The notes beneath the pieces are model-generated. The model worked only from the letters and a program-made list of their open reading frames with translations. It was not told where the DNA came from and ran no database searches. From the IMG/VR virus record IMGVR_UViG_3300032304_001987, positions 6,424 to 70,423 of that record: DNA of 64,000 bases. One strand, given 5' to 3'. The translations under genes were made by a program, and so were the position numbers. Numbering within the stretch: position 1 is the stretch's first letter; every line of letters begins with the position of its first letter. The DNA comes from a virus. This document shows, piece after piece, positions 7,401 through 29,572 of this stretch.

Positions 7401-7408
7401 GCTATAAT
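7400..7408 (+). promoter_or_regulatory. extended -10 promoter, likely leaderless transcript
   Basis: TGCTATAAT, 5 nt before ATG 7414. Confidence 0.55.
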
Positions 7409-7413
7409 AAGGC

Positions 7414-7659
7414 ATGCGCAGAGTGACCTTTCATAGCTTTCCCATGGGCGATGTAGAAGATCCAGAGATCTATGCGGCCCAACCCATATATGAATGGCAA
7501 CAGACCGAACATGGTCAATGGGTCATGAGCCATTGTGCCGATCCTACATATAGCATTGGGCCCGATCCCAATTACATGGGATACAAAATTTCATTGCAAG
7601 GCGAACTTGAAGATCAAGACGCAGTGTTTCACGAACTCAAATGGGGATCTACTAAATGA
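7414..7659 (+). CDS. hypothetical protein, F-x-L-K-W-like family
   Basis: GDVEDPEIYAA motif; ends LEDQDAVFHELKWG. Confidence 0.75.
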   Translation: MRRVTFHSFPMGDVEDPEIYAAQPIYEWQQTEHGQWVMSHCADPTYSIGPDPNYMGYKISLQGELEDQDAVFHELKWGSTK

Positions 7660-8639
7660 AAATTCTAGTAACTGGCGGATTAGGCTTTATTGGCCATAAT
7701 GTTGTGTCTGAACTGGAATCTGCTGGGCATGATGTTGTTGTCACCGACACACGCACTACCTATGGTATTGTTCCTCAAAACGAGTTGGACTGGTTGATAG
7801 CAGAACGACGTAAAAAAATTAAAACAGACAGGATCTACGGCATAGATATTGCCGATAAGGACGGCATGACGTGGTTGATACAAACACATCGTCCATCAAT
7901 TGTGATACATCTGGCCAGCTTCCCCCGACAAAAGGTGGTCAATGCTGATCCCCAATGGGGCAGTCGTAGCATGAGCGAAGGCCTGCTAAACTTGTTGGAA
8001 GCCAGTGCGGCCAATCAAGTACAGAAGTTTGTGTATGTAAGTAGTAGCATGGTCTACGGTGACTTTGAAGACACCGTAGGTATTGGTGTGTTGGAAAGTC
8101 ACGCTACTAACCCTATTGGGCAATATGGTATCATGAAACTGGCCGGTGAGTGGCTGACTCGAGACTACACACGCAGAACTGGCATGGCACATGTTGTTAT
8201 TCGTCCCAGTGCTGTGTATGGTCCCTTGGACGTAGAAGATCGTGTGGTCAGCAAGTTCTTGATGGCAGCACGTCAAGAAGGCACTATACAGGTCAACGGT
8301 GCAGAAGAAAGTCTGGACTTTACCTATGTTACAGATGCAGCACAAGGCATAGCACAAGCTGCTGTCAGTGACAATGCCTGTAACACCACCTACAACATCA
8401 CCCGCGGGCGTGCTAGAACCTTGAAGGAAGCCGCACAACTAGCCATTGACATTGCCGGTCAAGGACACATACAGATCAACCAAGCTGATGAAAACTTTCC
8501 CAGCCGTGGAGCATTAAATATTCAAAGAGCTCAACTGGATTTTGGGTATGCTCCACAAGTAAACATTGAACAAGGATTCAAACTGTATTATGACTGGCTC
8601 ACTAACAATCCCGTTTACGGGATTAAAAAAACAGTATAA
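7656..8639 (+). CDS. NAD-dependent nucleotide-sugar epimerase/dehydratase (extended SDR)
   Basis: ILVTGGLGFIG, HLAS, SSSMVYG, YGIMK catalytic motif, DFTYVTD. Confidence 0.92.
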   Translation: MKILVTGGLGFIGHNVVSELESAGHDVVVTDTRTTYGIVPQNELDWLIAERRKKIKTDRIYGIDIADKDGMTWLIQTHRPSIVIHLASFPRQKVVNADPQWGSRSMSEGLLNLLEASAANQVQKFVYVSSSMVYGDFEDTVGIGVLESHATNPIGQYGIMKLAGEWLTRDYTRRTGMAHVVIRPSAVYGPLDVEDRVVSKFLMAARQEGTIQVNGAEESLDFTYVTDAAQGIAQAAVSDNACNTTYNITRGRARTLKEAAQLAIDIAGQGHIQINQADENFPSRGALNIQRAQLDFGYAPQVNIEQGFKLYYDWLTNNPVYGIKKTV

Positions 8640-9669
8640 CAACCTTCGCACCGAGATCTTAGATGTCACTGATGTGGTCTTGCGATCTGGGCATCTCATG
8701 GACGGCAACTACACCGCCGAGTTTGAAGCTTGGTTGGCCAAAAAGAACGGTGTCAAATATGCAGCCACTTGCCATTCGGGCACACATGCTCTGGAAATCA
8801 TTGCCGAATACTATGCATCACAGAAGTTCTGGCCCAACCCTCCCCGAGTGCTAGTTCCGGCCATGACCTATCCAGCCACCATCAATGCTTTCATGCGTGT
8901 GGGTTGGGACGTGGTCATAATTGACACCGACTACCACGGACTGATGGATTTAAGAAAAATAGACAATCAAATGAGTGTGCAGGCCATGGTAGCAGTGGGC
9001 CTGTATGGTCATGCGCTGAACAAGCACGAATGGCTCAACAATCACGGTGTAGTCATTGAAGATGCCGCACAACATTGGCTTAGTTATGGTTGTAGAAGAA
9101 TTGCTAATGCTGCTGCTATAAGTTTTGATCCCATGAAGAATTTAAACAACTACGGCAACGGTGGTGCCATTGTCACCGACGATGTAAATCTGTTGGAGTA
9201 TGCCCGTAGCACACGCAACAACGGCAAACCCACACACATGGACACAGGATCAAACAGCCGTATGAGTGAGGTAGATTGTGCGCAGATGCTGGTCAAGGCC
9301 AATCATATTGATGCTTGGCAGGCCCGTAGAGCCAAGATCAGTGCTTACTGGATGCAACGTCTCAAGGGCACAAGTGCAAGAAGCTTAATTGATGAAAACA
9401 ACCATCAACATCATGCCTATCACAAGTTTGTGATTGAAGTTTCAAATCGTGATATCTTGCAACGTAATCTGGCCTTGCATGGCATTGAAACACGTATACA
9501 TTATCGTGAACCGCTACACGAGATACCAGCTTATCAACACTTGCCCGGACCGGATGTGCTGAGTGCGGCCTCGGCCATGGCCCGCAGAGTATTGACCTTG
9601 CCCTTATACCCCGAACTTACCGATCTTGAAGTTGAATATATTATTGATCAGGTACTAGACCACGTTTGA
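8590..9669 (+). CDS. DegT/DnrJ/EryC1/StrS family PLP-dependent sugar aminotransferase
   Basis: SGTHAL, IEDAAQ, SFDPMKNL..YGNGGA, NSRMSE, LTLPLYP; ATG 8590 is the likely start. Confidence 0.92.
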   Translation: MTGSLTIPFTGLKKQYNNLRTEILDVTDVVLRSGHLMDGNYTAEFEAWLAKKNGVKYAATCHSGTHALEIIAEYYASQKFWPNPPRVLVPAMTYPATINAFMRVGWDVVIIDTDYHGLMDLRKIDNQMSVQAMVAVGLYGHALNKHEWLNNHGVVIEDAAQHWLSYGCRRIANAAAISFDPMKNLNNYGNGGAIVTDDVNLLEYARSTRNNGKPTHMDTGSNSRMSEVDCAQMLVKANHIDAWQARRAKISAYWMQRLKGTSARSLIDENNHQHHAYHKFVIEVSNRDILQRNLALHGIETRIHYREPLHEIPAYQHLPGPDVLSAASAMARRVLTLPLYPELTDLEVEYIIDQVLDHV

Positions 9670-11470
9670 TCATAGCATACGTGGCCAACCAGGCCCAGTC
9701 ATAACTTTTGCGTAGTTCGGCAACATCACCGCCGACACTTTCCCAGTATTCCACAGCGTCCTTCGCACCCAGATGACTCCAACGCACACGATCATCATGA
9801 TCGTTTCGGCAAAGGTAACCACGTGCTTCTTTGAGCCATTGTTTTAATCTATATTCATTTTCTACATTGGGCAGGCTGTCTTTTAGTTTGATGCACTCAC
9901 GGAAGGCAGTGCGCCAGGCCATCCAGGCTGAATCTGTGTAATAGGCAGTGCCACTCAAGATAGGTACAACCTCGTGTGCTGAATCCAATGTAAAGTCCAA
10001 TCCTGTACCAGTGTTGTCCAACACCAATTTCTTGTTGTAAGCAATCATGGCCTGATGCCCATACTCTAATCCATTTACAGGATTTCTAGCATGAAAAATA
10101 TAGTGTTTGGGTTCCTGCATGCGATCTGGTTGCCAAGACCAATCAAAGTCTTTGTTGACATGCAACTTGGCGAACACAGCAAAAAACCATGGTGTGGTGC
10201 TGAGTCGAGCCGCGGCATGATAGGCGGCCACACGTCCTGTGACTCCGCTGCTACGATGCAGGCGATGGCGGCTGTTGGTAAACAAGTGCAGGTGACCCCA
10301 ATTTTCATTGGCATTGGGCTCGCCGTTGTCAATAAAAACAATATCCAAGGGGGATTCGTTGTGCATGTGGCGTTGGGTTCGATCTATGTGTGCATAGTCA
10401 TATAGTTGTGTGCGTATGTAAGGCACAGCTACCTTGGGCACTATAACTTGACTGGCGCCTGCGCTGAGTGGCACAATGGTCTTGGTTTTTTCACTCCACA
10501 AGGGCACCGTGACAGTTTGTTCTACCGGTGTTGTGGCAAACACCGCCAAAGGACCCAACCAATCTATAGTCTTTACAGCTTCGACATGAGTGTCATAATC
10601 ATGGCGTATCACGGGCAACGGTCTGCGCGGTACGCTGACTCCAACAAAATTCAAATCATACCAATCCAATAACTGCAACTTTTCACTGCGATATCGAAAC
10701 GTAGGCACATGCATGAAGAACGTATCTCCAAACTTTTCCCCATCTGACGCAAACACATGAAGCATAGTGGCCTGCCACTGTTCTGGATGCCACGAAAAAT
10801 CAAAATCCGTGTAGTCACAGATACTAGAACATATCCACACAAACTCGTGTTCCTCTGGTATGCTCCTGACTAATCTGCGCAAGGTATCTAAGTAGTTGTC
10901 AAAATAACGCACGGTGCGTGTGGTATTGGCGATCTGTCCAGCATTACCGCACATGTGATCTATTTCATACACAGCCGTGGCCACGCGATTGATTCTGACT
11001 CGTATCTGATCCACGTATTTGACTTCTGTGGCGCCCGGAACAAGATATTGTGGTCCACCGGTCTTTTGGTGTTGTGTGGCAAACTGATAGATGTAAGGAG
11101 GATCTGTGAAATCTGGGTGCCACGACCAGTCAAAACTTTCTACGTCAAATCCACAAGGTATAGTCCAACTGGGCAGATCATAAAAACGACGCAAAACTGT
11201 TTCGTTGCGATAGTTGGTGTCAGTATATCCAGACCGCGGTACCAAATATGTACCTGAATCCTTTTGCCATTGACTGGGCCAGGCATGACGTTGATGACTT
11301 TGCCAAGGCACAGGCTCCCATAAAAAATTCCACCCAGAGTAATCAGTTAAATAGTTTACCCACCAAAAATATCTGGTCCTACTGAGTTGTTGTGCGTGTT
11401 CAAGGCTGTCAGCCTGCTGTTCATGAGCAAACAAGTTAGGCCGAGTTCCTGAATAAAATACGTCAAACAT
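9641..11470 (-). CDS. glycosyltransferase-like (GT-A-type) protein with repeated N-terminal modules; paralogue of 26586-27515
   Basis: C-terminal domain DIVFIDNGEP..GVTGRVAAYHAAA..ARNPVNGLEYG..AWRTAFRECIKL aligns by eye with 26586-27515. Confidence 0.6.
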   Translation of the reverse strand: MFDVFYSGTRPNLFAHEQQADSLEHAQQLSRTRYFWWVNYLTDYSGWNFLWEPVPWQSHQRHAWPSQWQKDSGTYLVPRSGYTDTNYRNETVLRRFYDLPSWTIPCGFDVESFDWSWHPDFTDPPYIYQFATQHQKTGGPQYLVPGATEVKYVDQIRVRINRVATAVYEIDHMCGNAGQIANTTRTVRYFDNYLDTLRRLVRSIPEEHEFVWICSSICDYTDFDFSWHPEQWQATMLHVFASDGEKFGDTFFMHVPTFRYRSEKLQLLDWYDLNFVGVSVPRRPLPVIRHDYDTHVEAVKTIDWLGPLAVFATTPVEQTVTVPLWSEKTKTIVPLSAGASQVIVPKVAVPYIRTQLYDYAHIDRTQRHMHNESPLDIVFIDNGEPNANENWGHLHLFTNSRHRLHRSSGVTGRVAAYHAAARLSTTPWFFAVFAKLHVNKDFDWSWQPDRMQEPKHYIFHARNPVNGLEYGHQAMIAYNKKLVLDNTGTGLDFTLDSAHEVVPILSGTAYYTDSAWMAWRTAFRECIKLKDSLPNVENEYRLKQWLKEARGYLCRNDHDDRVRWSHLGAKDAVEYWESVGGDVAELRKSYDWAWLATYAMIKRGLVPDQ

Positions 11471-12560
11471 GATTAGAATAGATGAAATTTACAACAACAC
11501 ATTTTGGCCTTGGCTGGAAAAAAATCGGCCGGGAACCAGAATGTTTTTTTGTGACCCGCCGGGACATACCGGCCCTGAACATCTATTTAATCTAGGCAGT
11601 GACAATATCATAGAAACTGATTATGTGTTTTTTCATGATCAAGAGCCTGTGGATGTAGATTTGTACGATTCATTGTTTCGAGATGTTATAAGACGCAACA
11701 ATGATATCAGACACAAACCTCCCGGACATGTCATAGTCAGTGAACGCGGAGAAAATGTTGAACAACTGACACAAAAATATGGTTGGCACAGTCATTATTA
11801 TTTTTATCATGGCTGGGCATGTCAGGATTGGTTTCGCGGCTATGATCGAACATTTTTAATCCCTCGTGCTCGAGATAGAGCGCCTACTCAAACTTTCATG
11901 AGTCCCAACAGAATTGTAGCAGGCAAAAGAGATCATCGTGTGTTGTTTCTTTATAACATATTTAAACAAAAATTAGACCACAATCATATCACTGCACCCA
12001 GAGTGTGTCAATATGAAAATATGGATATATCTAGTATAGCACAAAAATACACCAATGTATACCAGGACATTGCCACAGTATTTGACCAAACACAGTTGCC
12101 CAGATTATTTGCTGGAGAAGAAACGCAACAAATGACTTCGTGCTGGCTAGGCAACTTTGCCGAAGCACAGGACAGCTTGGTATATGTGCCTACCGAAACA
12201 GTATATTTTGGTCGTAGGACACACATCACAGAGAAAACATTCAAAGCCATTGCATTAGAAATGCCATTTGTGCTGGTAGCACCTGCGGGCAGTTTAGAAT
12301 ACCTGTGTGAATATGGATTCCAAACCTTTGGTGACATATTTGACGAAAGCTACGACGAAGAGACCGATGACATACGGCGTGTGGAACGAGTGGTCAAACT
12401 GCTTGGAGATCTGGATCAACTCACAGTCAAAGAACGGCAACAGATACATCGGGCTTGTTTGCCTCGAGTTGAGTACAACTACAATCATTTCTATCGTGGC
12501 GGTCTATCCGATATACTGTGGAAAGAACTAGTGGGCATGTTGAATGGCCTACAAGTTTAA
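11469..12560 (+). CDS. putative glycosyltransferase (TEK-motif, GT10-like) paralogue 1
   Basis: TETVYF..HITEKTFKAIALEMPFV...GFQTF...DESYD. Confidence 0.55.
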   Translation: MIRIDEIYNNTFWPWLEKNRPGTRMFFCDPPGHTGPEHLFNLGSDNIIETDYVFFHDQEPVDVDLYDSLFRDVIRRNNDIRHKPPGHVIVSERGENVEQLTQKYGWHSHYYFYHGWACQDWFRGYDRTFLIPRARDRAPTQTFMSPNRIVAGKRDHRVLFLYNIFKQKLDHNHITAPRVCQYENMDISSIAQKYTNVYQDIATVFDQTQLPRLFAGEETQQMTSCWLGNFAEAQDSLVYVPTETVYFGRRTHITEKTFKAIALEMPFVLVAPAGSLEYLCEYGFQTFGDIFDESYDEETDDIRRVERVVKLLGDLDQLTVKERQQIHRACLPRVEYNYNHFYRGGLSDILWKELVGMLNGLQV

Positions 12561-16182: not shown

Positions 16183-16280
16183 TTATAGATGAAAGGGTCG
16201 CGCTTTCTCAGTTCCTTGAGTTTTTTTCTGTAGCGTATTTCCAACCGTATGCGATTGATCAAGTTTTTTATCCAGCTCAT
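16179..16280 (-). CDS. 33-aa basic peptide MSWIKNLINRIRLEIRYRKKLKELRKRDPFIYK (not in ORF track)
   Basis: Fills the gap exactly, with ATGA overlaps at both ends. Confidence 0.8.
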   Translation of the reverse strand: MSWIKNLINRIRLEIRYRKKLKELRKRDPFIYK

Positions 16281-19812: not shown

Positions 19813-21167
19813 TGTTGTTTGAGTATTCTATGAGTGCGTCCATTTGGTGCACGGGTTTCTTCTGGACGATATTCAATGATAGCTTCTAGTTCGGGTACCA
19901 CTGCCAATAAACTTTCGTTACGTGCCCAATCCAAATCATTTACAGTTCGCCAAAAGTCTGGGAGCAAATGACTGTTATCAGTGGCCATCATAAACTCTAT
20001 GGCTCCGCGGAATCCGCCCACAGCACGTTGAATTGTATCACGGGGTTCTAGCCAACGTATATGCTCTTCAAACTCTGCTTTGAACCGTTGCTTGATATCT
20101 GCAGGCAACATGTCGATACGATAGTCTTGCGGACCTTGTAGGATGTTTAGGTTAAAGTCTTGTGCCGCAATAAAGCCCGACTCTACCATGTAACGATGGA
20201 AACGTGTAAAGTTCCATATGTTCATCATGCTTAGGGTAGGGCTGATCATAAAGTCTATATGCGGGCATTGTTCTTTCAGGTCTCGCATATTTTGTTCTAC
20301 TTTGGCCCAGTCTGTGCCTGAACGTATAATTTCAGCTCGGTCACCCATGTCATCCAAACTGGCAGCCACGCACACGTTAGGGAAATGCTTCCATAAGTCC
20401 AGCACACTTTCTCGCTTGTAGCGTAGCTCGTTCAAGTTAGTATTATAAATTAGTCTAACATTGGTATTGCCTTTTTCTATCAGCAATTTAAGTATGCGAT
20501 TATGCTCTTCCATAATTAGCGGTTCGCCGCCGGCAAAGTATATTTGATCCAAGTGCGGAACATGCTCTTGCATTTGCTCCCACACATCTTCTTCGTGGCG
20601 GCCAGCAAATTGCACACGTGGGCGCAGTTCCTTGCCCCATAGTTTGACATCATCGTCGTACCAGCGACTGCTGAAGATACTGCCGCAACTACGGCATTTG
20701 AGTTGACATATATTACTGAAGCGAACGTCCCAATAGTGCAGCCTAAAGTCGGGTGTTGACCCATCTGGCAGTGTAGCGTCTACTTCGCCTATGTGTTGTC
20801 CAAAGTTCTTGTTTGAGTTGTTGCGCATACTGGCAAATCCAAAGCTTTCTTGCTCGTAGCAATCACCACACTCTGCACAAGGTCGATCCTCCAGCATGTT
20901 ACGGCGCATGGCCCGCATGGGTTCGTCGTTCCAAATCTCACGCATGGGTTTTTCTTTAAAGTTGCCCACAGGATGTGCGGCCTTGCCCAAACAGCAAGGG
21001 TAAGCACGACCGTCGGGCCATGCGTGTAAGTGTATCCAGGGTAGCATACAAAACGTATCTGATTCCATCAGTCTATGCTTTTGAACTTCTGTCAAGTCCT
21101 CTAATTTAATATAACTGGGCACACGATCTTGCCAATTGTACTTGCCTATAATTTTCTTTTCGCTCAT
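19809..21167 (-). CDS. radical SAM protein with N-terminal SPASM/twitch-like domain
   Basis: CQLKCRSC, GGEP; CMLPW..PCC..CGDC; ATGA-coupled start at 21167. Confidence 0.9.
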   Translation of the reverse strand: MSEKKIIGKYNWQDRVPSYIKLEDLTEVQKHRLMESDTFCMLPWIHLHAWPDGRAYPCCLGKAAHPVGNFKEKPMREIWNDEPMRAMRRNMLEDRPCAECGDCYEQESFGFASMRNNSNKNFGQHIGEVDATLPDGSTPDFRLHYWDVRFSNICQLKCRSCGSIFSSRWYDDDVKLWGKELRPRVQFAGRHEEDVWEQMQEHVPHLDQIYFAGGEPLIMEEHNRILKLLIEKGNTNVRLIYNTNLNELRYKRESVLDLWKHFPNVCVAASLDDMGDRAEIIRSGTDWAKVEQNMRDLKEQCPHIDFMISPTLSMMNIWNFTRFHRYMVESGFIAAQDFNLNILQGPQDYRIDMLPADIKQRFKAEFEEHIRWLEPRDTIQRAVGGFRGAIEFMMATDNSHLLPDFWRTVNDLDWARNESLLAVVPELEAIIEYRPEETRAPNGRTHRILKQQ

Positions 21168-22495
21168 AATGTGTTGTACCAATCAGCCAATGCTGGAAAT
21201 GTTTCGGTAAAGTTTTTGCCACGACGTTGATCGTACTGTGAGAAGAACTGTTTGAAATCGTTGTGTAGTTTGGGCATGTCAAATGCTTCGCTGTGCGGAG
21301 TTTTAACCACATCCAAATAATCAATCAAGCGTTGTAGATGATTGAGTTCATGCTCGTGCATGTATGGATTATTTTGATTGCGATATAAAAAATCTTGTAA
21401 TCTTACTTTGTATCGAGTGCGCAATTCATCGGGCAGGACCAGGGGATTTTGGAAGCTGGGGAAGCGCAGGATATTTAAAGTAAAGCTCACACGCTCACGT
21501 CCGTACATTTGCTTAAATTCTTGCAATTGATTCAGCAAGCCGGTCAGGCTATCCAAGCACAAGGCATTGATTGTTGCCATGCAATGTACTGCTCTCACAC
21601 GATTGCTGTCAAGCAATTTCTGAACATTGGCCGTCCAGGCAGTGTAGTCTAGGCCGTCACGTATGTATTCAGCTTGCGTGTATACACTTTCTTGGCTGGT
21701 GTATATGTCTACCTCTAATCCATTGATACTGTCTAACAATCGATCTAGGTCAACTTCGGCACCCAAGTTACTGTTGATAGCCAACCGTGTTTTACTACGT
21801 CCTGGATTGTTTTTGAACCAATCAATTAGTTTCCAGGTATCACCCGACATTAAGGGTTCGCCGCCGGTTATTCTTAGTTCTTGGAGTGTTCGGTGTAAAT
21901 CTGTTTCCCACCAAGCAAAGAACGCTTCAACGTAGGGATTAGTTTCACCAAAGCGGTATAGTTGACTGTTAGCATGATCATGAGTAAAGTGCCCACGCCC
22001 ATCAGACACCAGGCGCTCATAGGCGCCATTGCGTTGTATGTCTTTAACCCATGTAGTACTGAAAGCAGGATTACAATAGCTACAAGCGAATTGGCAAGTG
22101 CGATCGAATGCAATTTCAAGTGTGCGTAAATTGACGTCCGCTTGGTGCGGAGTTTGGTATGCTTCATTTAAGGCCTCTATAGGGTAAATTTTACTTTTAT
22201 ACACACGGTCGCTGATACTATCGCGACCTATGTCTTCGATCTTCCAACAATACTCGCACCCACTGGGTCTTTCCCCAGCTTGCATCATTGCACGATCTTG
22301 TTTTTTCTGTGCGGTGTTGTGTATGGCACTGGGATTGGTTGCTATGGCTTCTGGATCAATGACATGTGCCGGCGGATGATGACAACTGGTAGTCTGTCCC
22401 GAACCTAACCAGATAGTTGCATTATACCATTTGGCTGCGCAGAAGCTGGCACTTTTGGTATCCAAGACTTGACGGCGGAATTCTAAATCATTCAT
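21164..22495 (-). CDS. radical SAM protein with N-terminal twitch-like domain
   Basis: CQFACSYC, GGEP; CAAKW..SCHHP..CEYCW. Confidence 0.9.
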   Translation of the reverse strand: MNDLEFRRQVLDTKSASFCAAKWYNATIWLGSGQTTSCHHPPAHVIDPEAIATNPSAIHNTAQKKQDRAMMQAGERPSGCEYCWKIEDIGRDSISDRVYKSKIYPIEALNEAYQTPHQADVNLRTLEIAFDRTCQFACSYCNPAFSTTWVKDIQRNGAYERLVSDGRGHFTHDHANSQLYRFGETNPYVEAFFAWWETDLHRTLQELRITGGEPLMSGDTWKLIDWFKNNPGRSKTRLAINSNLGAEVDLDRLLDSINGLEVDIYTSQESVYTQAEYIRDGLDYTAWTANVQKLLDSNRVRAVHCMATINALCLDSLTGLLNQLQEFKQMYGRERVSFTLNILRFPSFQNPLVLPDELRTRYKVRLQDFLYRNQNNPYMHEHELNHLQRLIDYLDVVKTPHSEAFDMPKLHNDFKQFFSQYDQRRGKNFTETFPALADWYNTL

Positions 22496-23631
22496 TGATA
22501 TTGGTTGATAAATTGGGCAAAACGGTCAGGAAATTCTTGCCTGTGTGTGAGTCGGAGTTCAGCAAGCTGTTGCTGATTGTATTTACATGTATTATAGCAT
22601 TCATCCAAGAAACTTGCAAGATCCTGTTGGCATAAGTCTGTGATTACCTGTATCACACGGTCCACGCGATCTTGATGCTGTTCAATACTGTCAAATGTCT
22701 CATCAATCACGTGACCAAATGTCTTGAATCCTAGACGGTGCAAGTCACGGTAAAAGCCAGCGTTGCTGACCACTATGAATGGATGACCCATGGCCAATGG
22801 TTTGGCTATCTTTTCTGTGCGGAAACTGTAGGCACTTTCGGCACAGATGGTTTCAGTCACAACACTGAAGTAAGTGTCAATGTAGGGCGCAGGTTCAAGA
22901 TATATCTCTCCCCATTCCAGGTTGAATAATTCTTGTTTTAGATTGGTGGAATCTGCATTGATAGGCCCAAACACAGGTTCACGATAACGATCAACTTCAT
23001 ACTGATCTGGCAGGCGTTGCAGAGCCGACGAGGTGGCCATGACATCCGTGCCATTTTCTCTGAATTGGAAACTGCGCACAATAGTTGGCTTGGCATCCAG
23101 CATGGTCCACAAGGCTTGATCCAATACTCCAGATCTACGCAAACGTTCATACATGTATTTGCGATGTGGGCGGGCTCGACCATTTAGAAACAAAAATTTA
23201 TATGGTTTATTTTTTTGTGAAAATATTTTGTCAGTGTTGTGCTGTGCTTGTAAATTTTCTTGGTAGTCAAGAATTCTTGGTAGAAAATGTTCGTGTGTGA
23301 TGTGAGCATATTCTGTAGCAATCTCAGCGCCGGCGATGACTAATATTTTTCCTTCACGCACCAATTGATCTATGTGCAATTGTTTCAGCTGAGTTTCTAG
23401 TGTCCATGCTCCTTCGGCGCTGTTGCCAAACACAAATATATATTGACCAGTTTGTGCCAACTCACAAATCAAGGCAAGATTGTCTAACAAATGTTGACGA
23501 CCAAACACATAAATGGTGCCAGGTTCCAAGGTAACTTGACTAAAATCCCAAAAACTTTGATCAGTCCAAGGCTTGAGCAGGTCGTATACCTCGCTCATGG
23601 TATCGCTTACTAATTTACGACTGCCTAGCAT
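22492..23631 (-). CDS. putative glycosyltransferase (TEK-motif, GT10-like) paralogue 3
   Basis: FLNGRARPHR; VVTETI..FRTEKIAKPLAMGHPFI...GFKTF..VIDETFD. Confidence 0.55.
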   Translation of the reverse strand: MLGSRKLVSDTMSEVYDLLKPWTDQSFWDFSQVTLEPGTIYVFGRQHLLDNLALICELAQTGQYIFVFGNSAEGAWTLETQLKQLHIDQLVREGKILVIAGAEIATEYAHITHEHFLPRILDYQENLQAQHNTDKIFSQKNKPYKFLFLNGRARPHRKYMYERLRRSGVLDQALWTMLDAKPTIVRSFQFRENGTDVMATSSALQRLPDQYEVDRYREPVFGPINADSTNLKQELFNLEWGEIYLEPAPYIDTYFSVVTETICAESAYSFRTEKIAKPLAMGHPFIVVSNAGFYRDLHRLGFKTFGHVIDETFDSIEQHQDRVDRVIQVITDLCQQDLASFLDECYNTCKYNQQQLAELRLTHRQEFPDRFAQFINQYQ

Positions 23632-25549
23632 GATACTCACATTCTGACCACCAGGTGGCCATTTCTGGAAAGGTCTTTAAAAAATCCGTGCCGCGTCTGC
23701 GATCATGTTCACTAAAGAATCTATAAAAGTCTGCCTTGTTTTTTGTGATGTAGGCCAGATCCAGTTTCTGCCCGTCACGCATCCAGGCTATGTCGCGGTC
23801 CAGGCGTGCTATTTCGTAATCTTTGAATCCTTGAAATCTAGTATCTTTGGTTTCAATCTGTCGTATCATCCAGGCCCAAAGATATTCTAACTGTTCCACA
23901 TATGATTCTGGAAGGATCTGCAGACTTTGCCAAGCGGGTTGACGCAACACAGGTGTGTCAAACCATACACGCTGATAGGTTTTTGAATATATTTTACGCA
24001 GTCCTAGTATGCCAGCAAACAAGTTTGGCAAGCCAGTTACACTTAGGTTATTCATAGTTATAATAAAGGTAACACTATTACGATAAGGAACTTCTGTTAG
24101 GAATTGATTAACACGATCCCATAACAAGTCAAATTCTAGGCCGTGTCTGATATATTCAGCTTGCGGGCCAAAGCTGTCCAAACTAATATACTGCATAAAG
24201 TGTTCAAGCACTCCTTCTTGGCACAGTTCTTTACAATAGCCCAAATACTTCTGCCAGGTTTTTTCATCTACGCTGAAGTTTGACGTTACGTTTAAGTGTA
24301 GGTCTGGTTTAGGATTAGCTAGTACATAGTCAAATACCCGATAGGTATTCTTGTCTAGCATGGGTTCGCCACCGGTCATGCGGAAGTGTTCTAGTTCTGG
24401 ATATAGTGTAGGCCACCATTCCCAAAATGCATCTACATAAGGATTAGGTTGCGAGTTAGGGATAGGAAGATTACGCCCAGTGAAATGACTAGGGTCGTTG
24501 TGAATAGTACTAGTAGGATACCCGCCCCATTTAGTGACCTCTTGCTGCCATGTACTGCTGAATTGAGGACTACAATAGCTACAAGCCAGGTTACAAGCAT
24601 GATTAAAATTAACTTCCACATAGCTAGGTATAATATCATCGTTCCATTCTCCGCTAACAATTTTTCCAAAATCTTTTGCGGCCCAAGGCTCGCCACTACG
24701 ATAGTGTCTATCTGACAACTTACCGTTATCCTCCATAGCCCAACAATAGCTACACTCGCCGGGTCGTTCACCATCAAGCATAAGTTTACGCTGAGTTTTT
24801 TTGTATGCGGTATTATGCAATCCACTAGGACTACGCTGAATATCTTCTAATCGAATTTCATGTAAAGGTGGATGATAGCACGAGTTATTAAGTCCTGTAG
24901 GTAAATGTAAACTAACTTGTTTCCATTTAGCTAAACACATACTTGGGCTTATTTTGTCTAGCCTCTGCTTCATGATTTCAGCGTCACTTAAAAATTTAGA
25001 TTTAAATCCTTCAACAATTTTATCACCTGGTAGTTGATTTAAATCGTGTGGTTGGTATTCCTGGATGGCTTGTTGGTATTCCTGGCTGTTGACCGCAAGA
25101 AATTCTAATTTCATCATCTGGGCAAATTCTGATATATCGTTATTGATATCAACTATTATATCAGCTCCTTGTGTGTCCATTGGATATTGTTTATAGTACT
25201 TTTTATGATATGATAAATGGGCTTTTGCATGTTCTAATTTATCTGGCATATTTTTATTGCGGTGCTGGTCTTCTAAGTACCACTCTCGTTGTAGACTATT
25301 TTCTAAATTTGACTTAATAACTACAACTTTATGTCCAGGAAATAGTTGATTCAATAATGGAACATTTACACAGTGAGTAAGTATCAAATCTTGATTAGAT
25401 AATTTAGATTCTAGTGTTAAATACCGATATTCAAAATGTTGATCTTTGAGTAAGTGATCGTAGGTAGTTAGGCTAGTAAATTCTTGTTGTCCTTGCAGAA
25501 TATGATAATATCTATTGCCGCCTGCTCCTGGATAAAATGCTATAATCAT
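23615..25549 (-). CDS. radical SAM protein (twitch-like) with an extra AT-rich N-terminal domain
   Basis: CNLACSYC, GGEP; CLAKW..SCYHP..CSYCW; N-terminal ~180 aa begin IIAFYPGAGGN. Confidence 0.88.
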   Translation of the reverse strand: MIIAFYPGAGGNRYYHILQGQQEFTSLTTYDHLLKDQHFEYRYLTLESKLSNQDLILTHCVNVPLLNQLFPGHKVVVIKSNLENSLQREWYLEDQHRNKNMPDKLEHAKAHLSYHKKYYKQYPMDTQGADIIVDINNDISEFAQMMKLEFLAVNSQEYQQAIQEYQPHDLNQLPGDKIVEGFKSKFLSDAEIMKQRLDKISPSMCLAKWKQVSLHLPTGLNNSCYHPPLHEIRLEDIQRSPSGLHNTAYKKTQRKLMLDGERPGECSYCWAMEDNGKLSDRHYRSGEPWAAKDFGKIVSGEWNDDIIPSYVEVNFNHACNLACSYCSPQFSSTWQQEVTKWGGYPTSTIHNDPSHFTGRNLPIPNSQPNPYVDAFWEWWPTLYPELEHFRMTGGEPMLDKNTYRVFDYVLANPKPDLHLNVTSNFSVDEKTWQKYLGYCKELCQEGVLEHFMQYISLDSFGPQAEYIRHGLEFDLLWDRVNQFLTEVPYRNSVTFIITMNNLSVTGLPNLFAGILGLRKIYSKTYQRVWFDTPVLRQPAWQSLQILPESYVEQLEYLWAWMIRQIETKDTRFQGFKDYEIARLDRDIAWMRDGQKLDLAYITKNKADFYRFFSEHDRRRGTDFLKTFPEMATWWSECEYHARQS

Positions 25550-26097
25550 AATTTTGTTATTTTTATATAAAAAATATCAATGTCAAAAAGTCTGTCTGAA
25601 ATTGTTAATCCACCCAATGATAATATTAAATCTAACTCATTAATAATTTGATCATATGAAAATTTTAATCTATGAAATAACAAAGTAGTAATCGGAATGG
25701 CCACTATTATGTTTCCTTGTTGTTTTAGCATAGGAGCAAATTTATTAATAATTGTTGCACACCTGTTAATTGATTTGTATTTAAACTCTGTTAACCCGGT
25801 TAACATTATATTATTATACTGAGTATTTTCTACTATTTTGTCGTATGAATCAACAAAATTTATATTTTTTACATTTAATCTATTCCATATAATCTCTGAG
25901 TTGGTTAGTTCGATTATTTTATCGAACTGAATTTCCTTCATCAACGGGTATGGAAAACTGTCAATTGATATAGTTGTTCCTTGTAAAATGTTATTTTTTA
26001 TAAAATTTAACATGTTGGGAGACAGTGATCGAAATCTAAATACAGGATGTAATGCTTTATAAACCTGCCAGGCAAACAATACTTTTTTTATGTGCAT
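25546..26097 (-). CDS. AT-rich hypothetical protein, possibly a degenerate SAM-methyltransferase fold
   Basis: C-terminal ...MLKQQGNIIV... resembles the class I MTase L.pGG motif; weak. Confidence 0.5.
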   Translation of the reverse strand: MHIKKVLFAWQVYKALHPVFRFRSLSPNMLNFIKNNILQGTTISIDSFPYPLMKEIQFDKIIELTNSEIIWNRLNVKNINFVDSYDKIVENTQYNNIMLTGLTEFKYKSINRCATIINKFAPMLKQQGNIIVAIPITTLLFHRLKFSYDQIINELDLILSLGGLTISDRLFDIDIFYIKITKL

Positions 26098-26582
26098 GAT
26101 TTCTTTTTATAATATATGTTTGTTGTTGGGTGTACAAAATTAAAATATTTTCCATCATCATACTCAATATACGATTGTTTAATTTTTAAAAAATCTAACT
26201 TAGTGACTGATAAACTAACTATGTCAATTAAGTCTTGATCATAATTGTTTGTTAGCGTATTCCAAGATTGATCGGTGGTTATTAAGTATTTGTTAATTGC
26301 TATATAAACCCAATTTGGACTATTAGCTTGTATTTTTTGTCTAATTGTTACTAACTCCTCTTCTAATTTGTTATAAAGTTGATTTACAAAAATTACTAGT
26401 AGATCATTATTGTAAGGTGTGTTAATGCTACAAAATGGCAATTTTGATTGCCAATATTCAATATCGGGTTCGCCATCAAACGCTACACTTATAATATTAT
26501 TTTGTTTTATAAAATCAATAAGTTGTTCATCTTGCAAAATTTTGCAACCAAGTCCTTTCAATTGCTGGATTCTCCAACTCAT
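26088..26582 (-). CDS. AT-rich hypothetical protein
   Basis: 164-aa ORF overlapping the downstream gene; DDGKYFNFVHPTT motif. Confidence 0.6.
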   Translation of the reverse strand: MSWRIQQLKGLGCKILQDEQLIDFIKQNNIISVAFDGEPDIEYWQSKLPFCSINTPYNNDLLVIFVNQLYNKLEEELVTIRQKIQANSPNWVYIAINKYLITTDQSWNTLTNNYDQDLIDIVSLSVTKLDFLKIKQSYIEYDDGKYFNFVHPTTNIYYKKKSCT

Positions 26583-26585
26583 ACT

Positions 26586-27515
26586 TTACCAGCCTTCTTG
26601 GTTTCTAATTATATCAATTTCTTTAACCATAACACCTAGGTTGTGCCAGTTGGATCTGTAATGTTGTTTAAAGAATGCGCTTTCTGGGCCTAGCATTGTA
26701 ACCATTGGCAAATCTAGTTGCGTAGCTAAATCATCTGCAACACGACCTGCTAGTATTTCTGGATTGGAATCCTTTACTGTCTCCCATAACTTTTCTAATT
26801 CTGCAAAATCTTGTACCGTACGATGATCCCACGCTGGAGTAATCATTGTCATATAGGTGCCCATTCTAGCACCGGCAATTGCCCAGATCCCGTTATCCAC
26901 ATCACGCCCTACGTTGTGCCAAATAGTTAAATGATCTAGGTTACGCTGATGCACACGTTGTTTAAATTCTTGTAGCGTTGGCCGAGCTCCTTTGTTCAAG
27001 CACATTTTGACACCTTCGCGGAATCCAGCACGCCAGGCCTGGAATGCTGTGGCATTAGGGTAAGTGGTTGAGTAGCAATCGTGCATGGCCCAGTACAAAG
27101 GGTCAAAACAAAATTCAACTTGGGTTTCTGCTCGGCCATCTGTGGCTTCGTGAGTTTGCATGTTATTGACAAATGTTCTAGTCCACGAACTTAATCCACC
27201 GTTGCCATACATTAGTCCATTGATGTGATTTCTGGCACGCCAACGAAACACCGCCTGCTCATATTCTTCTGTGGGAAACTCCAAAGTGAGATTAAAAAAC
27301 TGTTCCGTGGGTATGTTGTCGCCATCAATGAGTATGAAACGTTCGGTTGAACTGGCCTTGGCAGCTGCCTTGTGTGCGGCATCACTACCTCGGACTCCGT
27401 CCACACGTTTGGCCCAGGGCACCATGTTGCGTATCCGAACCCAGAACTCTTCGCGTTGAGGTTCATCATAGGTCAGATAGATACAATCTAGGTCGGCGAT
27501 ATCAATGCGTTTCAT
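26586..27515 (-). CDS. glycosyltransferase-like (GT-A-type) protein
   Basis: IYLTYDEP, GVRGSDAAHKAAA, FILIDGDN (DxD), NGLMYGNGG, AWRAGFREGVKM. Confidence 0.65.
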   Translation of the reverse strand: MKRIDIADLDCIYLTYDEPQREEFWVRIRNMVPWAKRVDGVRGSDAAHKAAAKASSTERFILIDGDNIPTEQFFNLTLEFPTEEYEQAVFRWRARNHINGLMYGNGGLSSWTRTFVNNMQTHEATDGRAETQVEFCFDPLYWAMHDCYSTTYPNATAFQAWRAGFREGVKMCLNKGARPTLQEFKQRVHQRNLDHLTIWHNVGRDVDNGIWAIAGARMGTYMTMITPAWDHRTVQDFAELEKLWETVKDSNPEILAGRVADDLATQLDLPMVTMLGPESAFFKQHYRSNWHNLGVMVKEIDIIRNQEGW

Positions 27516-27861: not shown

Positions 27862-28114
27862 TTCTTTGTTGATCTGCTCGGGCTTGTTGTTCAAAACTTT
27901 TTTCTTGTATGGTTTTTTCTCTCCAGGTCCTGCGTGGATTTGCACACAACAAGCAGTGCGGGCGACCGCAGTTCATGGCATGGTGTTTGGCATACCTGTG
28001 ATATTCTTTGACGGTGATTCCGTGTGCTCGGGCAATGCGAACCTGACGGATTTCTGCATCGCGTGTTTTGCTGATACGTCTGCTGTGTTTGATGCGTTCT
28101 TGATCGTTGCTCAT
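27851..28114 (-). CDS. small basic Cys/His (Zn-binding-like) protein
   Basis: ATGA-coupled start at 28114; KHHAMNCGRPHCLLCANPRR. Confidence 0.65.
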   Translation of the reverse strand: MSNDQERIKHSRRISKTRDAEIRQVRIARAHGITVKEYHRYAKHHAMNCGRPHCLLCANPRRTWREKTIQEKSFEQQARADQQRNDD

Positions 28115-28833
28115 TGTGACCACTCCTTTTGATGGTAATGCACAAACCCACTCTGTGCAATAGTGTTTATCCTGAAAGGATCTGTTTCCCAGATTAATTC
28201 TTTGGTCCAATCACGGCACTGCAAGGCGTTGATGTGTTGTTTCATATGTACAATAGTTGGACCAAGTCCAGCAGGCAACGTGACCTGTTGTGGTCCCATG
28301 ATCTGTGCGGCCATGGCATACACAAGATCGGTACTGGCAGTTTCTTCAGGAAATTTTAATAGTTTCCTAAACTCTGTCCAGTTTTCAAATATGCTTCTGA
28401 CCAGGCCAAAAAATTCTTGTGCAACCTTGCTTAATCTCCAATAGGTGATGGCATTGTACACATCCGGTAAGTGGTTGGCATCAAAACATTTTCTATAGTA
28501 TCTAGAAGTTGCTGGTTCGTTGTAATAAGTCCTTGCTCCTAGACTGACCACAACATCACGCAGTTCAAACAAGGTCCACCAATGGTCTACTGAGCTGGCC
28601 GCGATCATGTCGGCTTCCAGTTTGATGGTTTGTCTATAAGGACTGATCTTAAACATCTGCCAGTCATTGGCCCAACCACCCAGATCGCCGTGTGGCAACA
28701 TGTCTTGGGTCACTATGGTAACATGGGCCGTAGGATGCCAATGCAAGATGCTGTCACGCAGTTGATCAGCACAGCGTTCGTATTCTGCACCGATAGCTGG
28801 AATCAAGTATCCACGTTCATGAATTGCTGGCAA
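28111..28833 (-). CDS. GT8-like nucleotide-diphospho-sugar transferase
   Basis: GYLIPA...Y...A..L..SI, SPYRQTIKLEADM, HMK, C-terminal HYHQK. Confidence 0.65.
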   Translation of the reverse strand: MPAIHERGYLIPAIGAEYERCADQLRDSILHWHPTAHVTIVTQDMLPHGDLGGWANDWQMFKISPYRQTIKLEADMIAASSVDHWWTLFELRDVVVSLGARTYYNEPATSRYYRKCFDANHLPDVYNAITYWRLSKVAQEFFGLVRSIFENWTEFRKLLKFPEETASTDLVYAMAAQIMGPQQVTLPAGLGPTIVHMKQHINALQCRDWTKELIWETDPFRINTIAQSGFVHYHQKEWSQ

Positions 28834-29572
28834 CTATGTCTCCTAGTTGGCGTTTGCCCATGGCATGAAAGTCTTGTTGCAGTTCTATCCAGCGTGATCG
28901 GCCTTCTGTATTGATAAAATCTACTCTGTATCTATCTTGTTCAATCTGGGTCAAATCATGCTCGGGAGTAAGACTAGCCAACCGCCATGGTATTCCTGCA
29001 TGATTTAAGGTATGGCCGTTGACTGTCAACAAGGCAATACTCAGTGCGTGATCGTTCCTGTATGTGGGTGTAGAGTTTTTGTAGATGTTTCTGTAGTGCG
29101 TCCAGTTGTCTCGAATCATGACCATGGTGTCAAATATTAATTCTGCCTGACGACTTCGATTGAATATCATGACAGTGGCCCACCACATGGGCATGCCAAC
29201 ATCTCCAAACCAGTTCAAGCCTTCAAACGTGTTACAATCTGTGACATCGTAGGCCCAACGATGTGCTAGGAAATCTGCATCACACTCCAACACACTGCGT
29301 AGCTGATCTGTGGCTACCACATAATCAGCATCCAGCACCAAGGTTCTATCCCAGGGCGTGAGCCTATAAGCATCCATTCTATTAGTGTTGTGCCAGGCCA
29401 CGGTTCCTGCATCTGTGAAATGTCTTGTGCCCGAATCTGTTCTGGAATCGTCGGTGACTATGTGTGTTGGTATGCCTAGATGTCGTTCTATGTTTTTAGC
29501 TGACCAGCGGGCCATGGCCACATAATCCGTATGCTCGTTGTTGCGAGCAAATATCAGTGCGCCTGTGGTCAT
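28817..29572 (-). CDS. GT8-like nucleotide-diphospho-sugar transferase
   Basis: GALIFA....DY..MA, TPWDRTLVLDADY (DxD), RNDHALSIA, HAMGK. Confidence 0.7.
   Translation of the reverse strand: MTTGALIFARNNEHTDYVAMARWSAKNIERHLGIPTHIVTDDSRTDSGTRHFTDAGTVAWHNTNRMDAYRLTPWDRTLVLDADYVVATDQLRSVLECDADFLAHRWAYDVTDCNTFEGLNWFGDVGMPMWWATVMIFNRSRQAELIFDTMVMIRDNWTHYRNIYKNSTPTYRNDHALSIALLTVNGHTLNHAGIPWRLASLTPEHDLTQIEQDRYRVDFINTEGRSRWIELQQDFHAMGKRQLGDIVASNS

Follow-up and report, generated by a model that had tools for sequence, protein, structure and literature searches.

A tail-fibre-linked island of sugar-modifying, radical SAM and glycosyltransferase-like genes in a jumbo-phage contig: a candidate glycan-tailoring pathway

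Gene content and conservation of the island

The 64,000-nucleotide stretch of viral DNA analysed here (hereafter the window) corresponds to bases 6424-70423 of the 70.4-kb IMG/VR contig IMGVR_UViG_3300032304_001987, which CheckV estimates to be ~20% complete. Between its positions 7656 and 29572, it carries a 22-kb block of genes for sugar-modifying and group-transfer enzymes, five radical S-adenosylmethionine (SAM) enzymes and several glycosyltransferase (GT)-like proteins. The window also encodes a myovirus baseplate (gp25-like, gp6-like and gp5/VgrG-like proteins) together with a 4792-residue and smaller fibre proteins, and since its relatives from IMG/VR are 317-344 kb long, the contig is a jumbo-phage fragment. 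A sequence-only reading had proposed that the block specifies a guanidinylated, carbamoylated aminosugar glycan, by analogy with aminoglycoside biosynthesis. Open reading frame (ORF) calls and family scans, which covered 27 ORFs between 6.3 and 32.8 kb (Pfam at E<=0.01, relaxed to E<=10 for unassigned ORFs), recovered each of the named enzymes (SDR, DegT, amidinotransferase, carbamoyltransferase and five radical SAM proteins) at the coordinates which that reading had given. The genes indeed abut or overlap, and the Thr-rich fibre gene at 29950-30954 indeed lies directly upstream of the minus-strand arm of the block, on the same strand. The predicted enzymes, and a small gene coupled to one of them, are as follows.

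7656..8639, plus strand: extended short-chain dehydrogenase/reductase (SDR), NDP-sugar epimerase/oxidoreductase type
8566..9669, plus strand: DegT/DnrJ/EryC1 pyridoxal phosphate-dependent sugar aminotransferase
11469..12560, plus strand: GT-B-fold paralogue 1, 363 residues
12544..13734, plus strand: GT-B-like paralogue 2, 396 residues
13700..14719, plus strand: amidinotransferase of the AGAT/StrB1/HsvA/SxtG family (pentein superfamily), 339 residues
14716..16182, minus strand: NodU/TobZ-family carbamoyltransferase, 488 residues
16179..16280, minus strand: 33-codon gene for a basic peptide ending in DPFIYK
17304..18608, minus strand: radical SAM 1, N-terminal twitch (NF033640)
18592..19812, minus strand: radical SAM 2 (NF033640)
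19809..21182, minus strand: radical SAM 3 (NF033640)
21164..22495, minus strand: radical SAM 4 (NF033640)
22492..23640, minus strand: GT-B-like paralogue 3, 382 residues
23615..24950, minus strand: radical SAM 5 (NF033640)
26586..27515, minus strand: GT2-like protein, 309 residues (GT-A lead)
28111..28833, minus strand: GT-A-like protein, 240 residues, paralogue of the next
28817..29572, minus strand: GT-A-like protein, 251 residues

The block as a whole had no match by megablast among 50,697 phage records. Its conservation was followed in five near-complete relatives (G001-G005), two of which are complete with terminal repeats, and with two protein baits. Relatives of the amidinotransferase are encoded by 189 IMG/VR stretches, from which 80 loci were kept (81-93% identity), 51 of them with full 10-kb flanks, while radical SAM 3 retrieved 22 IMG/VR loci. 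All five near-complete relatives display the same gene order and orientation from a conserved 81-residue ORF through to the fibre genes, and nine core genes (those encoding the SDR, DegT, a 609-residue protein, GT-B paralogue 1, the amidinotransferase, the carbamoyltransferase, a 368-residue protein, radical SAM 1 and radical SAM 2) occur in 51/51 loci, so that the synteny check proposed by the sequence-only reading came out in favour of co-occurrence. The genes surrounding radical SAM 3 were likewise found in 22/22 loci. In the amidinotransferase set, the lower counts of genes lying close to the limits of the retrieved sequence are accounted for by insertions alone, which displace them beyond those limits. 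The limits first drawn for the block hold in the main and needed correction at both ends and inside, since the conserved unit also has the 81-residue ORF (7414-7659), a 102-residue ORF (29569-29877) and the 33-codon ORF (16179-16280), and ~24950-26582 is a private insertion. Across the 51 loci, extra radical SAM, GT-B, SDR, amidinotransferase and carbamoyltransferase genes are inserted at fixed points, mainly at the junction of the converging arms and behind radical SAM 1. A conserved core with variable accessory genes is the pattern of surface-glycan loci.

Divergent copies, in which radical SAM 2 is 35-43% identical, keep the gene order, and their contigs have been binned into metagenome-assembled genomes (MAGs) of unrelated phyla. 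Orthologues of radical SAM 2 in GTDB genomes come from nine loci, eight of which carry the genes of this phage cassette on MAG-binned contigs, the ninth being a weak radical SAM match; these loci being mostly the phage cassette itself, they provide no bacterial neighbourhood and are an unreliable host hint. Two contigs of 148 and 183 kb (L145 and L146), with two different versions of the whole island, were assigned to the same Haliscomenobacter (Bacteroidota) MAG, which could be mis-binned jumbo-phage DNA or a hint of the host.

The only cultured phage found to carry part of the island is RsoM2USA (MG752970, 343.8 kb, PMC8504454), whose genes 348-358 form a reduced syntenic island downstream of giant fibre and baseplate wedge genes. 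The order there is fibre, 102-residue ORF, 251-residue protein, 240-residue protein, 309-residue protein, a radical SAM enzyme whose closest counterpart is enzyme 5 and another 309-like gene, with an SDR gene nearby. Profile matches are to gene 354 (102-residue ORF, 3e-13), gene 353 (251-residue protein, 4e-53), gene 352 (240-residue protein, 4e-37), gene 350 (309-residue protein, 3e-83) and gene 349 (radical SAM 5, 7e-103). RsoM2USA differs in having no DegT, amidinotransferase, carbamoyltransferase with its peptide, 368-residue protein or GT-B paralogues, and in missing four of the five radical SAM enzymes. Its island genes are annotated as 'hypothetical' and are not discussed in the corresponding paper, where the terms 'radical', ORF349, ORF350, ORF353 and ORF355 do not occur (PMC8504454).

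The enzyme families and the 33-residue peptide

The first two enzymes of the plus arm would act on nucleotide sugars. The SDR matches Pfam Epimerase (4.3e-42) and the nucleotide-sugar epimerase family phrog_540 (5.6e-51), and its GGLGFIG, YGIMK and SSSMVYGD motifs are kept in 6/6 orthologues. In 4,6-dehydratases of the RmlB/Gmd type, an Asp-Glu acid/base pair stands ahead of VYG. This pair is not present in the SDR, all six orthologues having SSSMVYGD instead, and the protein scores 112.6 bits with TIGR01181 against a cut-off of 365. The DegT protein scores 200.7 bits with PF01041 (5.2e-59, cut-off 19.8), and its true start may be an internal ATG. It adjoins the cassette in 5/5 relatives. SFDPMKN is invariant in 6/6 orthologues, and the conserved Lys of the SF..K motif is functional in the DegT family. 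The protein reaches no NCBIfam equivalog cut-off, the best score being that with PseC (1.7e-41, 142 bits vs 423).

The amidinotransferase was assigned by phmmer against solved chains, with AGAT (6.4e-15), HsvA (5.5e-13), StrB1 (2.6e-12) and SxtG (2.1e-9) all matching, and by a profile of 10 orthologues (1.5e-18), which aligns in three blocks corresponding to the N-terminus, the middle and the C-terminus. In the alignment, PRD is paired with PRD, GHGDA with MHIDA and GGISCCT with GGFHCWT, and PRD, HGD and GGISCCT are invariant in 15/15 orthologues. The AGAT residues concerned are presumably the catalytic C407 and H303 and the substrate-binding D170 and D305, with D254 as the Asp of the triad. 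At the position of the latter, the phage protein has an invariant stretch, CILNGASAS, in which Asn136 or a shifted residue may replace the triad Asp. The carbamoyltransferase presents both expected domains, the Kae1-like Carbam_trans_N (5.8e-33, 115.2 bits vs 24) and the YrdC-like Carbam_trans_C (4.7e-47, 160.1 bits vs 27), matches phrog_1601 (7.4e-89) and has an HHxxHAA motif kept in 15/15 orthologues. It scores only 118 bits with the NodU equivalog NF041651, whose cut-off is 1000, and residues 228-478 alone match, so that by its scores it is a member of the superfamily and not an orthologue of NodU. In all, the catalytic motifs of the block are intact in every orthologue examined.

All five radical SAM proteins belong to NF033640 (N_Twi_rSAM, twitch domain-containing radical SAM protein), with 296, 338.7, 402, 293.3 and 308 bits for enzymes 1 to 5 against a curated cut-off of 170, and each covers the full model (from positions 1-2 to 388-398). 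Seven cysteines are invariant among the paralogues, i.e. C45, C64, C105 and C108, followed by C159, C163 and C166, which form the CX3CX2C motif found in 18/18 orthologues of enzymes 1 and 2 and in 17/18 of enzyme 4, the eighteenth being a gap. The five are mutually 21-27% identical, while each is 65-92% identical to its orthologue in relatives (79-92% for enzyme 3 in the 22 IMG/VR loci), so that they are old paralogues that have been maintained individually. Enzyme 5 is unusual since the match to the family extends over residues 201-633 and relatives match its C-terminal 70% only, its gene being fused in frame here to a private N-terminal extension of ~200 residues. The sequence-only reading had likened these enzymes to BtrN, a comparison that does not hold: Pfam places SPASM at residues 9-108, N-terminal to Radical_SAM, which is unlike BtrN, and the search of PDB sequences at E<=1 did not return BtrN. 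The nearest solved chains are viperin, SkfB and BlsE, with a match restricted to the core. No literature naming the NF033640 accession or characterizing the reaction of the family was found.

The 33-codon gene fills the gap between the gene for the 368-residue protein and that for the carbamoyltransferase. Its ATG overlaps the stop codon of the former and its TGA overlaps the ATG of the latter, so that it is, on the arrangement of these codons, translationally coupled to the carbamoyltransferase. Residues 14-33 of the peptide, EIRYRKKLKELRKRDPFIYK, are nearly invariant across 63 distinct nucleotide versions, in which Leu21, Leu24, Arg25 and Pro29 are each specified by four to six codons. Invariant residues in the face of synonymous codon change argue that the peptide is a real protein under strong purifying selection. 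It is encoded upstream and on the same strand in 95/97 copies of the carbamoyltransferase gene for which upstream sequence was sufficient, within 30 nucleotides in 80 of them (overlapping contigs being counted separately), and the other two copies have divergent versions of it, one being that of marine virus AG-345-D19, whose carbamoyltransferase is 51% identical. Among the loci examined, the peptide was not found without the carbamoyltransferase.

Such a gene raises the possibility that the peptide is the real substrate or carrier of the pathway, as in RiPPs, the peptides that are made on the ribosome and modified after translation. The carbamoyltransferase would load its C-terminal DPFIYK, or the twitch radical SAM enzymes would modify it, and the glycosyltransferases would then glycosylate the product. 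Precedents exist for each step, since HypE is carbamoylated by HypF at its C-terminus, the C-terminal Val-Tyr of MftA is where MftC acts and mycofactocin is glycosylated (MftF); furthermore, SPASM/twitch radical SAM enzymes are mostly peptide maturases. This scenario is consistent with the presence inside the cluster of a short precursor-like gene under strong purifying selection that travels with, and is coupled to, the carbamoyltransferase gene, and with SkfB being one of the nearest solved chains. However, no RRE/PqqD-type domain or peptidase was matched by Pfam in any ORF of the block, and the SDR and DegT point to sugar substrates. RsoM2USA keeps radical SAM and GT-A-like genes without carbamoyltransferase or peptide, which indicates that the radical SAM enzymes do not depend on the peptide. 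Since the latter tracks the carbamoyltransferase and not the radical SAM genes, it may rather be a small subunit, and we regard a purely peptide-scaffolded pathway as rather unlikely.

The seven GT-like ORFs gave no NCBIfam or PDB sequence match, and their Pfam matches at E<=10 were noise only. The earlier estimate of about seven such genes is nonetheless right in number, with evidence that is graded from a GT-B structural model through GT-A motifs to a degenerate copy in the 609-residue protein. An AlphaFold2 model of the 363-residue paralogue (pLDDT 86.4, pTM 0.87), which is encoded in 51/51 loci, has 13 Foldseek matches at E<=0.001, nearly all of which are GT-B glycosyltransferases. The 396-residue paralogue (47/51 loci) and the 382-residue paralogue (orthologues in 5/5 relatives, 43-48% identity) align with it and with each other, and all three have in common an invariant E..T..TEK..K..P core, whose E..TEK..K..P part we take to resemble the GT10 motif. 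These three paralogues are accordingly taken as GT-B proteins by predicted fold; a profile of the family (37 sequences) had no match among PDB sequences. The remaining candidates show GT-A features. The 309-residue protein has a LIDGDN motif, with DxD in 17/17 orthologues and 75% mean column identity, and its nearest Atlas cluster is viral and named 'Glycosyltransferase 2-like'. The 240-residue protein (phrog_1903) has a LEAD motif in 15/17 orthologues, the other two being gaps, and its 251-residue paralogue a LDxDY motif in 15/15. The Atlas neighbours of the latter are nucleotide-diphospho-sugar transferase, PF03407 and GT8 clusters with scores of 0.95-0.98, and neighbour scores over the GT-A candidates are 0.95-0.99. 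Profiles of the 309-residue and the 240/251-residue proteins had no match among PDB sequences, and Pfam searches with 28 members of the 240/251-residue alignment gave scattered single matches at E>0.02. Run against a large protein database, this alignment retrieved at least 6967 metagenome homologues; the 120 listed are unnamed or called 'hypothetical protein' and have no Pfam domain.

Six further features of the block were recorded.

7414..7659, plus strand: conserved 81-residue ORF, first gene of the plus arm
9641..11470, minus strand: 609-residue protein with three FDWSWHPD-type repeats
16277..17383, minus strand: 368-residue protein with a phage-restricted fold
~24950..26582, minus strand: low-GC insertion private to the contig, comprising the radical SAM 5 extension and ORFs of 183 and 164 residues
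27502..27945, minus strand: conserved 147-residue ORF
29569..29877, minus strand: conserved 102-residue ORF, first gene of the minus arm

The 609-residue protein, which matches no Pfam, PHROG or NCBIfam family, has a C-terminal domain (residues 373-594) homologous to the 309-residue protein (BLASTP, E 3e-8) in which the DxD motif has been lost. The model of the 368-residue protein (pLDDT 83.8) has ten BFVD matches at E<=0.001, all of which are uncharacterized phage proteins, and Foldseek found nothing in the PDB at this threshold; an identification as a cyclophilin was not adopted. No Pfam or PHROG match was found for the 81-residue ORF (5/5 relatives, 50/51 loci), and neither the 147-residue ORF (orthologues 36-55% identical) nor the 102-residue ORF (47-81%) matched any family. 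The insertion, with a GC content of 0.35 vs ~0.44, has no homologue in the 22 loci or the five relatives and no Pfam or PHROG family match. In no ORF of the cassette does a 19-residue window reach a Kyte-Doolittle value of 1.6, so that no transmembrane helix is predicted and all the products are, on this measure, soluble. Nor did any ORF of the block match a flippase, a polymerase, a polyprenyl-phosphate transferase or a family of the Wzx, Wzy or WecA type.

Comparable modules and the likely product

The statement of the sequence-only reading that no characterized phage pathway has this composition is correct, and no paper characterizing one was found; modules of like composition have, however, been in print since 2010, and are uncharacterized. 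They are those of CP220/CPt10, the pelagimyophage clusters and S-SCSM2R. For CP220 and CPt10, the original report mentions an interchangeable module of unknown function with five radical SAM genes and a putative glycine amidinotransferase (Timms et al. 2010, PMC2853527). The CP220 genome (NC_027997) resembles the island in that the genes which follow those of the baseplate spike in one same-strand row include five for radical SAM proteins, one for an amidinotransferase homologous to that of the window (tblastn E 6e-6, profile 4e-12) and two of nucleotide-diphospho-sugar-transferase-like type. It differs in that its radical SAM proteins are 250-340 residues long, are unmatched by the window profiles at E<=1e-3 and include one that is Cys-rich near its C-terminus, and in that the module stretch has a PAP2 phosphatase and no annotated carbamoyltransferase, DegT or GT-B gene. 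The host-recognition cluster of pelagimyophages and cyanomyophages brings together fibre genes, glycosyltransferase genes and radical SAM cassettes of variable occurrence (PMC7029224). S-SCSM2R has glycosyltransferase, DegT-like, radical SAM and amidinotransferase genes in tandem (ORF301-310), for which its authors propose antibiotic synthesis, and ORF266, an amidinotransferase homologue, was detected in CsCl-purified virions (PMC12801897). ORF266 is 31% identical to the amidinotransferase of the window. These are T4-like marine phages of 150-250 kb in which 2-oxoglutarate-Fe(II) oxygenases, absent here, are prominent. A fixed set of five N-twitch paralogues is not described for pelagimyophages or S-SCSM2R in those papers, no carbamoyltransferase is annotated in the S-SCSM2R stretches examined, and the word does not appear in PMC7029224. 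On a 7.9-kb contig of marine virus AG-345-D19, the genes for an amidinotransferase, for a carbamoyltransferase (E 2e-149) and for a radical SAM enzyme of the N-twitch kind are direct neighbours.

The analogy with aminoglycosides is to be taken in a restricted sense. StrB1 (streptomycin), TobZ (tobramycin) and BtrN (butirosin) have their families and chemistry in common with the block, i.e. amidino transfer from arginine, O-carbamoylation via carbamoyl-AMP and radical SAM catalysis with an auxiliary Fe-S cluster. Unlike these pathways, the island has a phage setting with a fibre linkage, an N-terminal instead of a C-terminal twitch domain and no cyclitol-forming enzyme, since Pfam found no sugar-phosphate cyclase, inositol-phosphate synthase or 2-deoxy-scyllo-inosose synthase among the 27 ORFs. 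Without a sugar-phosphate cyclase, 'aminoglycoside-like' can apply to the enzyme families only. A guanidinylated, carbamoylated aminosugar glycan is a reasonable deduction from these families, while the aminocyclitol side of the original analogy has lost its defining step. This bears on the idea that the product might be a free aminoglycoside-like or small glycoside metabolite acting on the host or on competitors, as in the proposal for S-SCSM2R quoted above for DegT, radical SAM and amidinotransferase genes. All the enzymes are soluble by prediction, and several families are common to the streptomycin (StrB1, StsC-type), tobramycin (TobZ) and nucleoside-antibiotic (BlsE) pathways, which would fit. 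However, the block has no exporter or self-resistance gene in addition to no cyclase or inositol-phosphate synthase, its six or seven transferases point to a polymer, or to a macromolecule as the acceptor, and its fibre-adjacent position is conserved, which makes a free metabolite quite improbable.

Composition, solubility, the number of transferases and the conserved core with variable accessories are together best fitted by a pathway in the cytoplasm for the assembly and extensive tailoring of a glycan, which we consider likely. We infer the order of the reactions, the product and the acceptor as follows. Nucleotide sugars would be taken from the host, because the block encodes no nucleotidyltransferase, and would be oxidized or epimerized by the SDR. 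The resulting keto-sugar would be aminated by DegT, and its amine would be turned into a guanidino group by the amidinotransferase, with arginine as the donor. The NodU/TobZ-type enzyme, together with its 33-residue partner peptide, would add a carbamoyl group, the five N-twitch radical SAM enzymes would carry out further C-H chemistry, and three GT-B and three GT-A-like transferases would assemble or attach several sugars. The acceptor would most likely be the fibre apparatus of the phage, notably the adjoining Thr-rich protein of 334 residues.

Candidate acceptors, regulation and neighbouring genes

Two fibre genes lie next to the island, and each arm of the island is preceded by a short regulatory candidate.

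29950..30954, minus strand: Thr-rich fibre-like protein of 334 residues, candidate acceptor
30969..32159, minus strand: tail-fibre protein with a C-terminal intramolecular-chaperone-type domain
29884..29929, minus strand: intrinsic-terminator-like hairpin after the fibre gene, with a T-run and TGCTATAAT (29884-29892, 6 nucleotides before the ATG of the 102-residue ORF)
7371..7408, plus strand: hairpin, T-run and exact TGCTATAAT (7400-7408, 5 nucleotides before the ATG of the 81-residue ORF), candidate terminator and extended -10 of the plus arm

The tail-fibre protein matches PHROG tail-fibre families and, weakly, Pfam Peptidase_G2. The fibre-like protein upstream of the island contains 23.1% Thr (31.1% Ser and Thr together), a composition kept in 13/13 orthologues (18-24% Thr) that are only 39-71% identical in sequence. 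Three arguments point to it, or to the fibre apparatus at large, as the acceptor: the linkage to fibre and baseplate genes persists in unrelated phages, the Thr content of the adjoining protein is maintained, and components for membrane steps or DNA modification are absent. The detection of the homologue ORF266 in virions of S-SCSM2R lends further support. There are precedents for viruses that carry their own glycosyltransferases and sugar-modifying genes and decorate their own particles. Mimivirus decorates its fibrils with glycans, and mycobacteriophages reportedly carry capsid or tail glycans. In those systems, the glycans were shown by glycoproteomics, whereas here a glycan is predicted from genes, and we know of no radical SAM enzyme, amidinotransferase or carbamoyltransferase in either. 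The full scenario, in which the glycan is placed on the virion and most likely on the Thr-rich fibre apparatus of the phage itself, is put forward tentatively, at a little less than even confidence.

Several findings count against this scenario. On the enzymatic side, the SDR, not being a 4,6-dehydratase, does not account for the keto-sugar, the amidinotransferase has no Pfam match even at E<=10 and the triad Asp could not be aligned, the aligned block starting one residue after D254 of AGAT. The 240-, 251- and 309-residue proteins are GT-A leads, on the basis of motifs and language-model neighbours only, and the top VIA-align matches of the GT-B model are T4 DNA glucosyltransferases, ~1 Z unit above FucT. 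Soluble glycosyltransferases can, moreover, also act on host lipid-linked intermediates. On the regulatory side, the hairpin 3' of the fibre gene is found in 12/12 distinct intergenic sequences of relatives, with TATAAT following in most. Two classes of motif, TAAATA[CT] and TGnTATAAT, are over-represented ahead of genes in G001. The former precedes, among the 28 genes of its class that were scanned, those for sheath, baseplate wedge, adaptor, fibre, virion-protein and endolysin functions (nine clear cases and two fibre-like), and in the window GCGGTAAATA, a motif of this late type, precedes the tail-fibre gene at 30969..32159. The latter precedes 16 genes, none of them structural, the 102-residue gene being one of them. 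The minus arm thus has the appearance of being transcribed on its own from a sigma70-type promoter, and not simply as part of a late fibre operon, and the cassette enzymes may be made early, which would suit a role directed at the host just as well. Both the promoters and the host-surface interpretation in print weigh against the fibre as acceptor. The same-strand arrangement with the fibre genes to which the sequence-only reading drew attention is real, whereas co-regulation is not implied by it, a terminator and a separate -10 lying between.

These signals call for some reservation of their own. TGCTATAAT is not enriched over the window (28 matches with one mismatch vs 18.5 +/- 3.9 expected), so that its intergenic placement alone counts, and a comparable -10 stands ahead of the plus arm in only 6/24 distinct upstream sequences of relatives. 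A TAAATAC found 6 nucleotides before the start of the G001 amidinotransferase gene was put down to chance, its spacing being unlike the 18-24 nucleotides seen before structural genes. TGnTATAAT was also noted 5-6 nucleotides before the ATG at both window sites (29884-29892, minus strand; 7400-7408, plus strand) and at the G001 genes at 14768, 88840, 241613 and 312972, a distance that leaves no room for a ribosome-binding site and suggests leaderless mRNAs.

The same observations bear on a role in remodelling of the host envelope, in which the soluble enzymes would alter lipid-linked O-antigen, core or capsule intermediates of the host at the inner membrane face, with export by host Wzx/Wzy/ABC systems. 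The altered glycan would block superinfection, or adsorption of progeny to debris, during a long latent period. Many of the glycosyltransferases that act on lipopolysaccharide are peripheral proteins of GT-B or GT-A type and have no transmembrane helix, the fold matches of the GT-B model include WaaG and PimA, and promoters of the class seen ahead of the minus arm accompany non-structural genes that are probably early. The latent period of RsoM2USA is given as 270 min (PMC8504454), and an effect on the host surface is the interpretation printed for glycosyltransferases of pelagimyophage host-recognition clusters (PMC7029224). However, the block encodes no membrane protein, flippase, polymerase, ligase, GtrA/B/C-type protein or polyprenyl-phosphate transferase, and its physical linkage with fibre and baseplate genes is maintained in phages that differ widely. 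Its conservation across what are probably different hosts, judging from MAG bins of unrelated phyla, seems difficult to square with a single host glycan pathway. We therefore consider envelope remodelling unlikely, although it retains appreciable weight.

Phage DNA, which the sequence-only reading had listed as a third possible target, is disfavoured. According to this possibility, the transferases would glycosylate phage bases and the other enzymes would tailor the attached sugar. Diverse glycans are said to be built on DNA by glycosyltransferases of phages, an early function would go well with a sigma70-like promoter, and genes of the GTP cyclohydrolase and QueD-like types are found elsewhere in the G001 genome. 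Nevertheless, the ThyA-family hydroxymethylase (PF00303) was found in 0/5 relatives (10/14 control genomes being positive) and TGT/DpdA (PF01702) in 0/5 (controls 14/14), although a very divergent DpdA could escape the Pfam model. The ThyX found in 5/5 relatives stands for ordinary dTMP synthesis, the block is tied to tail genes and not to replication genes, and the margin of the T4 enzymes over fucosyltransferases is only that ~1 Z unit. DNA hypermodification is accordingly the least probable of the explanations considered.

A combination of two of these schemes may also be envisaged, by analogy with HypE. The peptide would be the acceptor or carrier of the carbamoyltransferase, and possibly a substrate of the radical SAM enzymes, and a radical-tailored glycan or glycopeptide bearing guanidino and carbamoyl groups would be put on the Thr-rich fibre. 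Such a hybrid is speculative and on the unlikely side. If true, it would mean that the phage makes a rapidly diversifying, positively charged sugar coat setting host range or shielding the fibre, and it would provide the first reactions for NF033640 together with a new kind of post-translational modification of virions. If it is simply a fibre-directed glycan that the island makes, very abundant giant environmental phages (at least 6967 metagenome homologues for the 240/251-residue family, 189 IMG/VR stretches for the amidinotransferase) would devote ~7% of their genome to an unusual decorated sugar, and virus particles would, for the first time, be seen to bear the products of guanidino, carbamoyl and radical C-H chemistry. 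The island in any case gives a biological setting to five members of the catalogued NF033640 family and brings to light a carbamoyltransferase and a 33-residue peptide that are strictly coupled, and RsoM2USA, being cultured, offers an experimental entry point. A paper on 'moraphages' (jumbo phages that reach 307 kb, have hosts among the Bacteroidota and share four glycosyltransferase orthogroups as part of their core) is not shown to cover this clade, and radical SAM, carbamoyl and amidinotransferase functions are unmentioned in it.

Other genes around the island were noted. ThyX is encoded directly upstream of the 81-residue/SDR start in three of the five relatives (G002:C1:21156-21722, G003:C1:9476-10063 and G004:C1:126598-127197), lies elsewhere in G001 and G005 and is absent from this position in the window. 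Upstream of the island, the window encodes an AMP-binding/adenylation-domain protein (379-1815, plus strand) and a PP-loop ATPase of the Asn-synthase/QueC-like type (3271-4146, minus strand). Both are absent from all five near-complete relatives and may thus be accessory tailoring genes. In G001, a NifU-like protein, ribosomal protein S21, GTP cyclohydrolase and a QueD-like protein are among the products encoded at C1:30420-30803, 51311-51532, 172178-173017 and 178168-178617, and the NifU-like Fe-S assembly protein, whose gene stands behind a late-type motif, may supply the radical SAM enzymes. Finally, a single ORF of 4792 residues (32986-47364, minus strand) with traces of FG-GAP and CBM_5_12 lies between the baseplate wedge and small fibre genes of the window. 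Its counterpart in RsoM2USA, ORF361 (2541 residues), is 'most likely' the band of >288 kDa seen on SDS-PAGE and mass spectrometry of the virion (PMC8504454).

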